A stretch of DNA of 63,101 bases, the filler included, from Chthonomonadaceae bacterium (GTDB lineage: Bacteria > Armatimonadota > Chthonomonadetes > Chthonomonadales > Chthonomonadaceae): assembly GCA_035650735.1 (NCBI GenBank). It is 6 parts of 6 records of this genome, joined end to end, with 100 filler letters (N's around TTAATTAATTAA, not from the genome) between each part and the next. Parts side by side here need not be neighbours in the genome. Positions count along the whole stretch, not along the records: positions 29,386 to 42,612 come from DASRGZ010000037.1; 5 more parts are not named here. The stretch is one strand, 5' to 3'. The notes beneath the pieces were generated by a model. It was not told the DNA's origin, made no database searches, and was given only the letters and a program-made list of their open reading frames with translations. This document shows positions 27,790-31,769 of this stretch, piece after piece. Made by a program: the position numbers and the translations under genes. Each line of letters opens with the position of its first letter. Position 1 is the stretch's first letter.

Positions 27790-27901
27790 CAGGATTGACA
27801 GGATTAAAACCAAAGACAGAAGCCTTGTAGTCCAAAGGCATAGGGACTTGGTTGGGTAGGTTTTAGAAATCCTGTTTAATCCTGTCTAATCCTGTTCATC
27901 C
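27790..27901. repeat. inverted repeat of CAGGATT / AATCCTG units
   Basis: CAGGATTGACAGGATT ... AATCCTGTTTAATCCTGTCTAATCCTGTTCATCC; same family at 39620-39713. Confidence 0.7.
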
Positions 27902-29111
27902 GGTAGCACCGCATTAAGCGGTGAAAAGTCAGGCAAGGAGGTATGTGGGTTCGGCTTTCCGTAAGTTTGATTGCCACATCAGACTATGGGGAAGCGCTCA
28001 TGAACCCACAACCTTCCTTCTGTCCTAATCTGGCCTGTCCATCAAGAGGCGTGATCGGCGCAGGGAACCTGCGGGTCCACGATAGCCTCCGAAACCGCTG
28101 GCGCTGCACCGTCTGCCACAAGACGTTTTCGGGTCGGAAGGGAACGCCCTTCTATGGCCTCAAGACCGATCCCCAGAGGGTCGTGTGGGGGGTGGCCCTG
28201 CGGGCTTATGGCTGTCCGCCCAAAGCCATTGTCGCCGCCTTCGGCCTGGATGAACGCACCGTGGCCGACGGGCAGAAGCGAGCAGGCTAACATTGGGAAA
28301 CGGTGCATACCACGCTGGTACAAACGCCTCAAGACTTGAGGCAGGTGCAGGCCGACGAGATCCGCGTTCGCTGTCAGAAACGCCGGGTCGTCTGGTTGGC
28401 GATGGCGCTTGGTGTCCCGACCCGCCTCTGGTTAGGCGGGGTGGTGTCGGCCCAACGCGACAAAAGGTTGGGGCGCGCCCTGGCAAAGAAGGTCCAAGCC
28501 TGTGCCCGTCTTGCCGCCGTCCTCGTGGTGACCGATGGCTGGACGGCTTACAAAGACGCCCTGGTCAACGCCTTCCGTCAGAGCGTGCCCACGGGCAAGC
28601 GCGGGCGACCGCCCTTGATGGCCTGGCCCGATTTGGTGCTGGCCCAAGTCGTCCAATGGCAAGCAGCCGGACGCACGCTCGGCTTTCGGGTCTGTCATCT
28701 GGCGGGCAATGTGTCCAAGAGTGCTGGCCTGCTTCCAGAGGATCAGGTGCTTTCCACGGCTTACATCGAGCGTCTCAATGCCCCCTTCCGGCAGCGGTTG
28801 GCGGGCCTGTGTCGGCGCACGCGCGCGCTGCTGCGTTCCCAGGAGAGCGTGCAGACGGGCCTGTATCTGGTGGGAACCGTCTACAACTTTTGTACGCCCC
28901 ACCAGAGTTTGCTGCAAAACAAGCAGGCGCGCCCCCCGCGATGGCGGCCGGCTTGACCGGGCATGTCTGGAGCGTGGGCCAACTGCTGGGTTACCAGATC
29001 GCGCCCCCGCCGTTCGTGGCTCCGAAGCGGCGGGGGCGTCCGCCGGGAAAGAAGGCACGACCACCACACAAGGGAGCCGACGTACTTGTCACCGCTTAAT
29101 GTGGTGCTACC
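27902..29111 (+). mobile_element. IS1-like insertion sequence with pseudogenised transposase
   Basis: 23-bp terminal IRs GGTAGCACC(G/A)CATTAAGCGGTGA; zinc-ribbon N-terminus from 28000 (FCPNLAC..CTVCHKTFS), QADE, TDGW..Y, TAYIERLNAPFRQRL; in-frame TAA at 28288-28290 and a frameshift near 28930. Confidence 0.85.
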
Positions 29112-29144
29112 ATCTGTGTAATCTGTGGATTTTATTAGAAAGGG

Positions 29145-29285
29145 ATTCACTACCGTACACTTTTTCTGTCGGGGCAAAGTCTCCGTATGCTCAACAGAAC
29201 TGGAATAGGTAATCCTTCGTTGAGGCAATGCTCAATCCAGAGCAGCCCGATCTGAAAGAGGCTCAAATCGCACCGATCTCTGCGG
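29145..29285. repeat. 141-bp sequence whose exact reverse complement opens the next contig (29386-29526)
   Basis: ATTCACTACCGTACAC...GATCTCTGCGG versus CCGCAGAGATC...GTAGTGAAT. Confidence 0.95.
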
Positions 29286-29385: not shown

Positions 29386-29526
29386 CCGCAGAGATCGGTG
29401 CGATTTGAGCCTCTTTCAGATCGGGCTGCTCTGGATTGAGCATTGCCTCAACGAAGGATTACCTATTCCAGTTCTGTTGAGCATACGGAGACTTTGCCCC
29501 GACAGAAAAAGTGTACGGTAGTGAAT

Positions 29527-29661
29527 AGGGCAGTTTGGAGTAGGAGGTGTTTCGGAGCCGTAGACAACCTTATTAATCCTCTGAGCAACGATCTGTTGCT
29601 CGATGGGAGCTTGATTGTTTAACGTCGTCGGCTGTGAAGTTGCCTGCTTAGAAGGGTCCAT
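29527..29661 (-). pseudogene. N-terminal fragment of an interrupted gene (possible STAND/NLR ATPase with N-terminal amyloid-like motif)
   Basis: MDPSKQATSQPTTLNNQAPIEQQIVAQRINKVVYGSETPPTPNCP runs directly into the 141-bp repeat. Confidence 0.45.
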
Positions 29662-29724
29662 CTACATCACCTGGCATACCATCCCTCTTATGTGGAATTT
29701 ACTATACAAGCAAAACAAGCTTGC

Positions 29725-30165
29725 TTAAGCCTTCGGGTTGTAGGTAATCGGGGCGGTAATTGTTTCGGCTATAATCTGCTGTCCAATCTCGCCTAGATTT
29801 TGGATGTTGAAAACGGTTCCTGCGCCTGCCTGGTCGGCTTCCTTGAGGAGTTGGGCAAGCTGGCTGGCAAAGGCAGGCTCCGCTTCCAGCCTCTTCTTGA
29901 GTTGTGCGCGAACACTGGCTTGTGTATCTGCATCCTCCGGTTTCTCGGTTAAGTCTTCCATTGCCTCCTTGCCCGCAGGAGAACCGTGCAACTTGTCTTT
30001 GACTAGCTCAAAGACGTGTCCGGCTTTTGCCAGAGCGCCCTCGGTAGCGGACTGGCCGACTTCTTTGCCTGCCTTCTTGGCAGCGCCGGAAGCCATCTCC
30101 TTGAGATAGGGAGCGAGCAGCTTGACAGTAGCCACAGCCAGTGCGGTAATGGTAGCCGGTTCCAT
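29725..30165 (-). CDS. small helical protein (Bell-domain-like) with C-terminal N/Q/I-rich low-complexity tail
   Basis: MEPATITALAVATVKLLAPYL..AAKKAGKEVG..VKDKL..EAMEDL..PED..LKKRLEAEPAFASQL + FNIQNLGEIGQQIIAETIT. Confidence 0.75.
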   Translation of the reverse strand: MEPATITALAVATVKLLAPYLKEMASGAAKKAGKEVGQSATEGALAKAGHVFELVKDKLHGSPAGKEAMEDLTEKPEDADTQASVRAQLKKRLEAEPAFASQLAQLLKEADQAGAGTVFNIQNLGEIGQQIIAETITAPITYNPKA

Positions 30166-30656
30166 CGTTATCTCCACAAAAAACTCAAGTCAACAACATG
30201 GATTCGGTGACAGCCTCTGACATTCCTTATGTAAACAGAGAAATAGTGAGCAAGAGGGCAGGCAAGCAGTGCTTCGAGTGGTAGATGACGACTGCGCTAA
30301 AAGAGGGGCGTGGAGAAGAGAAGCCTCTATTGCCATTGGTTCCGACGGCGGGTATACTGAAGCCACAATTGTCGCTGTCTCCTTCGACGTTCAGGCCCTC
30401 CTTTGTGCGGCCTGTTCTCCTGCGAACAGCGCCCCATTCCCGTGCGATTCGATTTCGACCGCGCCCATTTCCAGCGCGTTCCGCCAGGCCGCTTTCGGAT
30501 GGTGCAGGGCTTTGCCTTCTGCCCGATGGGAGGGGCCACTGGCAAGCGCTGGCCCCCTGGCGCCAGAGACCGGACGACGGCCCACTCCCAAGCCGGGTTG
30601 CCGGAGCCCTGTATCAAGGCAAGGATACGTAACCGATGAACCGAGGTGAGGATAGC

Positions 30657-31769
30657 ATGTCCGGCGATGTCCGGGAGGGGCTACGCGCCGTGGAAGCGTT
30701 CTGGCATGGGCGGCTACCGGAACCGTTCTGCACGCTCTACGCGCATCTGGACTACCCATTTCTGGCCCCCTGTGAATTCTTTCCACTGGAGGCCATTGCC
30801 GGCGGCGCCGGGCGCAGCTTCGGCATGCTCCCTCAGTTTCTTCCGTTTGGGCGCGCGGTAGACGAAGGCGGAACGTATGGATTCTATGTAACGCGTGAGA
30901 ACGCGCAGGGGCGGTGGCCGGTTCTCTATTGGGATGAGGATGAGATGTTCCTGCGTCCCGTCGCCTCCGAATTCGGCGCGTTCCTGCGCTACTGCCTGAT
31001 CGTGGGCCGGTATGAGACGGAAGAGCAGTGGCCGGAGGAGGGGCCGAATCGGCAGGAGGAGGCTGAGCGGCGGGAGTTCGCCCGCCGAATTGGTCTGCCG
31101 GTCGAGTTGGCGCTGGGGCCGATACCACGCAACGATACCGAGCTCTACGAGCATCTGGTGCGCTCCGATCCGCAGGACGCGGTGAGCCTCTGTCACCTGG
31201 GCAACATGTGGCGGGCACGCGGGGATGCAGAGCACGCGCTGGATTTCTTCCATCGGGCGGGCGAGGCGGCGCCCTGGTTCGGCGACCCACTCTATCTGGT
31301 GGCTGATGTCTACCGGGAGCGCGGCGACTATGGCCGCGCGATTCAAAGCTGGTGGGGCGTGGTGCAGCGCCTGTTGCCGCTGTGCACGCGCACCTGGGAA
31401 TGGGATTTAGGCGAGGAGCACCCGGAGGCCGATATCTATGAGGTGGCCGCCGATGCGCTGGCGCAGTTCTGCGATGCCGCCGATCCCGACCTCAAGGCGA
31501 AGCCGCTCTGGCGCGTGGTCGTTCATGAAGACCCTTACAATCCGGATGTGCACGAGGCCCTGGGCGATGCGTTGCTGGCCCAGAACGACCTGGCTGGGGC
31601 GGAGCGCGAATACCTGAATGCGCTTTCCCTCTGCTTTGCCGAGCGCAGCAAGCAGCCCGAACGGCTTTACGCCAGTCTGCTCGCCCTCTATGAGCGCATG
31701 GGGCCGAGCCGCACGCGCGATGCCGCCCTCGTCCGCTTCGACCGCACGCTGCCCCGCCCGGCCTTCTGA
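30657..31769 (+). CDS. hypothetical protein with SUKH/SMI1-like N-terminus and TPR-like C-terminus
   Basis: FLPFGR..GGTYGFY..WPVLYWDED..PVASEFGAFL; TPR-like helices (LCHLGNMWRARGDAEHALDFF, HEALGDALLAQNDLAGAEREY). Confidence 0.7.
   Translation: MSGDVREGLRAVEAFWHGRLPEPFCTLYAHLDYPFLAPCEFFPLEAIAGGAGRSFGMLPQFLPFGRAVDEGGTYGFYVTRENAQGRWPVLYWDEDEMFLRPVASEFGAFLRYCLIVGRYETEEQWPEEGPNRQEEAERREFARRIGLPVELALGPIPRNDTELYEHLVRSDPQDAVSLCHLGNMWRARGDAEHALDFFHRAGEAAPWFGDPLYLVADVYRERGDYGRAIQSWWGVVQRLLPLCTRTWEWDLGEEHPEADIYEVAADALAQFCDAADPDLKAKPLWRVVVHEDPYNPDVHEALGDALLAQNDLAGAEREYLNALSLCFAERSKQPERLYASLLALYERMGPSRTRDAALVRFDRTLPRPAF

Follow-up and report, generated by a model that had tools for sequence, protein, structure and literature searches.

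A probable decayed amyloid-signalling pair of a Bell effector and an NLR sensor in Armatimonadota

The gene pair at the end of contig C37 of a Chthonomonadaceae genome is very probably the decayed remains of an amyloid-signalling death pair composed of a Bell effector (gene A) and an NLR sensor (gene B), judging from sequence comparison with related loci and from analogy with published systems. It lies in a window of 63,101 nucleotides, the whole stretch of DNA analyzed here, which is composed of six contigs joined by N linkers (Table 1). Matching tags carried by the two proteins likely once formed a common amyloid through which the sensor relayed a death signal to the effector. A sequence-only reading of the same DNA had proposed a prion-like effector/NLR module. 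Its assignment of the family and of the layout stands, but it missed that three separate lesions have turned the sensor gene into a pseudogene, so the module cannot work as described in the window genome. The kind of system is already known, while its occurrence in this phylum and its HEAT-repeat sensor may be new.

Table 1. Coordinates and strands of the features of the pair (window positions unless a contig is given)
Feature	Position	Strand	Description
Gene A	29725..30165	-	Intact 146-aa effector gene, Bell family by sequence relationship
Bell domain of gene A, residues 1-115	29821..30165	-	Predicted helical; acidic residue 2; hydrophobic first helix
Effector-side tag, gene A residues 117-143	29737..29817	-	BASS2-like; N/Q/G/V/I fraction 0.56
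Gene B, native 5′ part	29526..29661	-	45 codons of a NACHT-HEAT NLR pseudogene; remainder on C223
Sensor-side tag, gene B residues 10-36	29554..29634	-	Score 33 against gene A tail
Target-site duplication, 9 bp	29526..29534	-	Second copy beside the opposite IS end, contig C223
IS end breaking gene B and contig C37	29386..29525	.	Multicopy IS, DDE_Tnp_1 transposase family
Gene B, remainder	G000:C223:35486-34882	-	Start of NACHT ATPase

The effector gene and its family

The helical nature of the 146-aa product of gene A is supported by its AlphaFold2 model (pLDDT 81.5, pTM 0.71), in which six helices (residues 3-25, 28-35, 41-59, 63-74, 79-95 and 97-115) form a bundle across residues 3-115 and the tail is unstructured in the monomer. 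The protein starts with MEPAT, which places a glutamate at position 2, and has a best 19-residue hydropathy of 1.4. A phmmer search returned 905 representative relatives at E ≤ 1e-3. Among the best 150 of these 905, 131 are 115-165 aa long, and this length class has an acidic residue (D/E) at position 2-3 in 106 of 131 cases, an N/Q/G/V/I-rich tail in 94 of 131 and a middle of such composition in none (0/131). A short helical effector with an acidic residue 2-3 and a C-terminal motif corresponds to the description of Bell proteins (10.1101/2020.01.06.895854). The link of gene A to Bell is indirect and runs through an intermediate: its residues 1-112 share 34% identity over 110 aa with a Streptomyces plasmid protein (pairwise E 7.7e-10; profile E 7.8e-24), whose tail agrees with the published Bell-side motif C02_s063 at all but 4 of 31 residues and whose gene stands upstream of an NB-ARC gene. 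Because this intermediate carries a near-published Bell-side tail, and in agreement with the homologue features and the model, the earlier proposal of a Bell-domain effector holds: gene A is, by sequence relationship, a Bell-family protein predicted to damage membranes.

Family model scans assigned gene A to no family of Pfam, NCBIfam or PADLOC; a Bell model is absent from Pfam and NCBIfam. A word-indexed homologue search recovered only gene A itself (1 of 53 candidates). Pattern scans, which are insensitive, found no relatives in metagenome contigs (0/587 candidates) or in viral contigs (0/75), and one metagenome locus was found with a narrower alignment pattern (1/114). An Atlas search returned unnamed, mostly cyanobacterial clusters at 0.94-0.96, with no structural match over TM 0.5. 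The comparison with Bell/HeLo-like folds suggested by the earlier reading, widened to MLKL, plant CC death domains and Babybell, was carried out with Foldseek and gave nothing at E ≤ 0.001; the best hit of a wide fold search has a Z of 6.5, and the plant resistosome chain 6j5t_G (residues 22-127), ranked second (Z 5.8, rmsd 3.6, 78 aligned residues), lies within the background of helical bundles. Sequence and fold searches of the PDB found no clear relative, a result that excludes no fold. A tree of 87 Bell domains, obtained by a quick search and poorly resolved at most forks, places gene A together with the Bell protein of another genome of the same family, G075 (support 84), within a clade of eight members (support 96). 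There is one Bell gene in the window genome. The promoter scan of the locus gave a single site, on the opposite strand and at chance level. The AT-richness noted earlier was borne out, with a G+C content of 0.56 for gene A and 0.49-0.50 for gene B versus 0.63 for the genome.

Three lesions in the sensor gene

Gene B begins with an ATG at position 29661, 63 bp past gene A and on the same strand, in agreement with the co-oriented gene first placed about 60 bp downstream. The putative NLR had been described as cut after about 45 codons, which is indeed the length of its native part; the cut was made by an insertion sequence (IS), not merely by the contig end. A simple assembly cut was rejected on the grounds that the IS end starts at 29525 and forms the last 140 bp of C37, which stops inside the repeat. 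The frame of gene B continues for 36 codons into the IS, giving an 81-aa ORF (29661-29416, minus strand) that keeps the whole tag. The end type found on C37 occurs at 8 contig ends and the opposite type at 10, and the repeat was identified as an IS because a whole variant copy on C158 joins both end types and encodes a DDE_Tnp_1 transposase (PF01609, E 9.5e-11). When flanks were paired by target duplication, 7 of 9 ends (8 of the IS and 1 of the variant) gave 8-9-bp matches, and the best partner of the C37 flank was C223 (9 bp; next best 6 bp). We infer the C37-C223 join from this 9-bp duplication and from the common neighbourhood rather than from a spanning read.

Recovery of the rest of gene B, as advised by the earlier reading, was thereby possible. 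Beyond the IS on C223, the frame runs for 24 codons to a TGA, followed by 175 codons that encode a Walker A motif and the beginning of a Walker B motif. This remnant gives a partial NACHT match (E 0.05), and its best longer relative is the sensor of G075, a NACHT-HEAT protein (42% identity, E 1.6e-14), all of which fits the STAND gene that had been predicted. The predicted type did not survive: the stretch PPTPNCP had been likened to the linker before the CPYxGL motif of certain STAND ATPases, a type that we rejected since the motif is absent from both the C223 continuation and the intact relative. A recoded TGA was rejected because the codon is located inside a 70-bp element that has inverted ends of 8 bp and is flanked by a target duplication of 8 bp. 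Past Walker B, the reading frame skips to one HEAT-like repeat, after which it stops. The match to the intact G075 sensor ends at residue 197 of ~727, which leaves ~500 codons missing, up to the last HEAT repeat, and this missing middle was not found elsewhere in the window genome assembly. Three lesions make gene B a pseudogene: the IS, a miniature element with an in-frame stop and a ~500-codon deletion. Four sequencing runs proved identical to the C223 part, and the deletion junction is crossed by contigs from two runs, both of which may be the source of the window DNA. Among the sequencing-run contigs listed, none bridges the IS site and an IS-free allele was not seen. The sequencing runs listed as carrying the DNA include none of RNA.

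The 70-bp element is found at G000:C223:35364-35433 (L001:15365-15434) and at 22 other places in the window genome; from its sequence we take it to be a miniature inverted-repeat element (MITE). Its 23 full-length copies are 97-100% identical, with perfect 8-bp ends and 8-9-bp duplications in 23/23, and stem from a recent MITE burst. The MITE shares its first five bases with the left end (27902) of an element spanning window positions 27902-29150, presumably IS1-like given its sequence, whose ORFs (27943-28290 and 28303-28956) have weak DDE matches; this element is a possible source of transposase for the MITE. Some 40 bp past this element, where contig C36 terminates, lies an end of the IS type that breaks gene B. 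A REP-like repeat of ~54 bp at 27851-27904 has dozens of genome copies that are 83-96% identical. Pairing by target duplication predicts six scaffold joins across collapsed copies of the IS: C36/C215, C50/C217, C91/C116, C190/C186, C202/C17 and C37/C223.

The shared tags and their recurrence

The peptide first noted in gene A is present, although the protein does not strictly end in it: it spans residues 120-137, with nine further residues to the C-terminus. That of gene B begins at residue 13. As reported earlier, no gap is needed to align the two, and 7 of the 19 columns are identical. The ungapped BLOSUM62 score of the gene A tail and gene B head is 33, a value that 7 of 1000 shuffled versions of this head attain, and 15 of the 8017 ORF heads of the window genome score at least as high against the gene A tail; the match is above chance, though modestly. 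A new motif class, as suspected at first, was rejected because the closest homologues of gene A have tails of the type F-x-T-x-I-x-G-x-V-x-K-L-V-Q-I-G, near-copies of which are contained in the published BASS cluster C02 (PMC8086366). This pattern, of our own making, fits 41 of the 131 relatives. The same cluster also contains a glycine-poor variant, N-Q...E-K-Q-I-N-I-Q, that resembles the head of gene B, whose tag copy is without the usual glycines. From the set size of 329, C02 would be BASS2. We built a family profile from 42 homologue tails, many of C02 type, with the two Armatimonadota proteins left out; it is distinct from the published BASS2 profile. With it, the gene A tail scores 10.8 bits (matched by 1/1000 shuffles) and the gene B head 1.1 bits (49/1000), while the tail and head of G075 are matched by 6/1000 and 0/1000 shuffles, respectively. 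In a genome scan with a motif profile, the gene B head fell outside the top 15 hits. The tag of gene A thus appears to be a divergent BASS2-like variant, with a provisional formal class assignment.

G075 (Chthonomonadales, Armatimonadota) has an intact pair, in which the Bell gene is directly followed by a NACHT and HEAT-repeat gene (145 and about 728 aa; NACHT 28.1 bits for a cut-off of 26.7). Its tags match each other in letters that differ from those of the window pair, and a small neighbouring gene is found near the cassette in both genomes. The Bell profile detected a Bell-like gene in 8 of 401 genomes of the phylum, window genome included. Only G075, G184 and G303 among the seven others have a two-gene pair; G398 carries a Bell-STAND fusion, G263 a Bell domain fused to a domain of no recognised kind, and G142 and G286 give weak Bell matches with no NLR seen nearby. 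A match in G300, judged by eye to be an unrelated membrane protease, was rejected. The NACHT core of G075 matches 6 of 401 genomes, and the Bell profile found no neighbour in the four other genomes with this core. An insensitive pattern scan of genome contigs for relatives of the intact sensor recovered only itself (1 of 26 candidates). In G184, a single Bell gene stands between two large STAND-like genes, both apparently starting with similar Q/I/V-rich tags (L008:2216-8849). Four NACHT-HEAT genes lie within ~24 kb in G096 (C1:787000-812000, L065-L066), two of which presumably start, as judged by eye, with a CHAT-like domain. Together with the G398 fusion, these N-termini point to all-in-one forms in Armatimonadota and match the two-component versus all-in-one pattern described for the Bell/NLR family (10.1101/2020.01.06.895854).

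The earlier reading had advised a search among homologues for a co-varying N-terminal motif. We scored nine hand-picked and related pairs, four from Armatimonadota (window included) and five from plasmids and a metagenome, leaving out two Nostoc loci without a directly adjacent partner, fusions, unpaired loci and two weak plasmid matches. The cognate tag is the best in 7 of 9 rows and in 8 of 9 columns, and the cognate pairing ranks at the top of 362,880 permutations, a figure that is overstated given that the pairs were chosen and are related. The exceptions are Arthrobacter and G184; the cognate score of the latter (24) is reached by 72/1000 shuffles, and its partner was recognised as STAND-like by eye only. 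The G075 pair scores 54 (0/1000 shuffles). The score of the window pair is 4 points above that of the gene A tail against the G075 sensor head. These comparisons indicate that related pairs repeatedly carry a shared tag whose two copies co-vary, in a set that supports co-variation rather than measures it. The highest tag score among the pairs (72) belongs to L019:4001-5546, where a Bell gene precedes the gene of a HEAT-repeat protein (~380 aa) that bears a tag and in which no NTPase is visible, possibly an NTPase-free sensor. The earlier reading had asked whether downstream genes encode STAND proteins with TPR or WD40 repeats; the repeats of the G075 sensor are HEAT, and the gene B remnant keeps one HEAT-like repeat.

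Proposed pathway and relation to known systems

In an intact pair such as that of G075, the HEAT repeats would bind a phage-derived or stress ligand, upon which the NACHT domain would oligomerise and gather the N-terminal tags into a cross-beta seed. This seed would template the C-terminal tag of the Bell protein, freeing its helix 1 to enter the membrane, and the infected cell would die by abortive infection. The biochemical steps are borrowed from the published relatives Bab/Agp and HET-S, and amyloid formation, toxicity and phage defence are likewise attributed to the window pair by analogy. In the window genome (6.5 Mb), this pathway most likely no longer operates. The Bell protein is most likely an orphan, as no other tag-bearing sensor was found: none of the heads of the 25 STAND-like ORFs scores above 29 against the gene A tail, and the motif profile matches nothing else above 9.1 bits.

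Co-variation demonstrates matching, not amyloid, and in the literature found, fibril data concern BASS1, BASS3 and BASS11 only, that on BASS2 amyloid being computational. The two genes could hence be functionally linked through tags that are an ordinary beta-strand docking interface within a finite complex, not a self-propagating amyloid. We consider this unlikely, as the composition and position of the tags fit the tested BASS classes and the motifs of BASS1, BASS3 and BASS11, when tested, formed fibrils. It is considerably less probable that the Bell gene has been kept because of another trigger, which would be a sensor encoded at a different locus or a free seed provided by the 81-aa remnant. 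Gene A is intact despite three hits in gene B, the remnant ORF retains the whole tag, and from an assembly that is 97.6% complete in 224 contigs a gene could be absent; against this stand the scores of the STAND-like heads and of the motif profile given above, and the fact that gene B was a ~5-fold larger target, so that by chance all three hits would fall in B more than half of the time. We give slightly less credit still to the specific proposal that this remnant, with a whole tag and no NACHT brake, serves the intact Bell protein as a free and heritable amyloid seed; if true, it would be the bacterial counterpart of the step from HET-S/NWD2 to the [Het-s] prion and allorecognition in Podospora. 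Least credible of all is a chance likeness between low-complexity N/Q/I-rich stretches of neighbours with no signalling link, an explanation favoured by the unrelated ORF heads and shuffles that score as high as the window pair and largely refuted by the pair scoring, since the same two families adjoin in G075 with a different and better tag pair and the layout is repeated at 7 other loci. The decayed amyloid pair, which we prefer, has points against it as well: the cognate score of the window is the second-lowest of the nine, the gene B head barely fits the family profile, 3 of the 7 other Bell-matched genomes of the phylum have no visible NLR partner, and the experiments of the 2020 preprint itself bear on BASS1 and BASS3, which are other motif classes.

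Bell-domain/NLR pairs with BASS motifs were described by Dyrka et al. (10.1101/2020.01.06.895854), and the window pair resembles them in its helical effector of the 120-150-aa class, with an acidic residue 2-3, a hydrophobic first helix and a C-terminal N/Q/G/V/I tag, and in its collinear downstream NACHT gene with a tag at the N-terminus. It differs from them in its host, the hosts found named for published pairs being Actinobacteria, Cyanobacteria, Chloroflexi, Bacteroidetes and Methanosarcinales, in sensor repeats of the HEAT rather than the published TPR or WD40 type, in a divergent tag with a glycine-poor sensor copy, and in having a sensor pseudogene; a full-length sensor is absent from the window genome and present in G075. 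We found no literature on Armatimonadota with NACHT and amyloid, or with a Bell domain, in line with the earlier remark that the lineage was not known for such pairs. “Armatimonad” and “HEAT” are absent from the main text of the preprint, whose supplementary tables may list cases, and “HEAT repeat” is absent from the accessible text of the literature found on Bell domain, NACHT and BASS; the supplement of PMC8086366 labels sequences by accession, so that the phylum is not readable from the labels. A Nostoc plasmid also carries a Bell and NACHT-HEAT pair (L023:3998-8276), the sensor of which is likewise split by a transposase.

In Bab/Agp of E. coli ECOR25 (BASS11), a Bell-related effector is activated through a shared amyloid tag; in the literature found, it is the only such bacterial pair with a demonstrated antiphage function (10.1101/2024.11.07.622273). 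The N-terminus of Bab is of the “MEPIS” type, similar to that of gene A, whereas its domain is of ~80 aa, its motif belongs to another class, and Agp has a TPR-GreA/B-PIN architecture instead of a NACHT. HET-S/NWD2 of Podospora anserina (PMC3321046) likewise combines an effector with an adjacent NACHT sensor carrying a matching motif, and differs by its HeLo domain, WD40 repeats and two-repeat motif. The transposon inactivation of nwd2 in het-s isolates, which orphans its partner (PMC3321046), is a precedent for the orphaned window effector, except that the het-s effector is also mutated while gene A appears intact. NACHT with C-terminal HEAT is among the architectures listed for bNACHT antiphage proteins (10.1101/2022.07.19.500537), a text from the accessible part of which the word “amyloid” is absent; unlike these proteins, the window pair has its effector in a separate gene joined by a tag.

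These observations would extend Bell/BASS amyloid signalling to Armatimonadota and point to a HEAT-repeat NACHT sensor as the partner. The role of the classical Bell/NLR pairs is a question posed in the Bab/Agp study (10.1101/2024.11.07.622273). With its intact and compact pair, G075 offers a candidate for studying this function and the BASS2-type tag, and the window copy mainly illustrates the decay of such defence genes.

Two further features of the window genome were observed. Its STAND-like proteins have undergone a large expansion (25 loci, ~900-1250 aa), and most of them presumably start, as judged by eye, with cyclase-like or transcription-activator-like domains. The divergent neighbour of the pair (30636-31769) encodes a SMI1/KNR4 (SUKH) and TPR protein.
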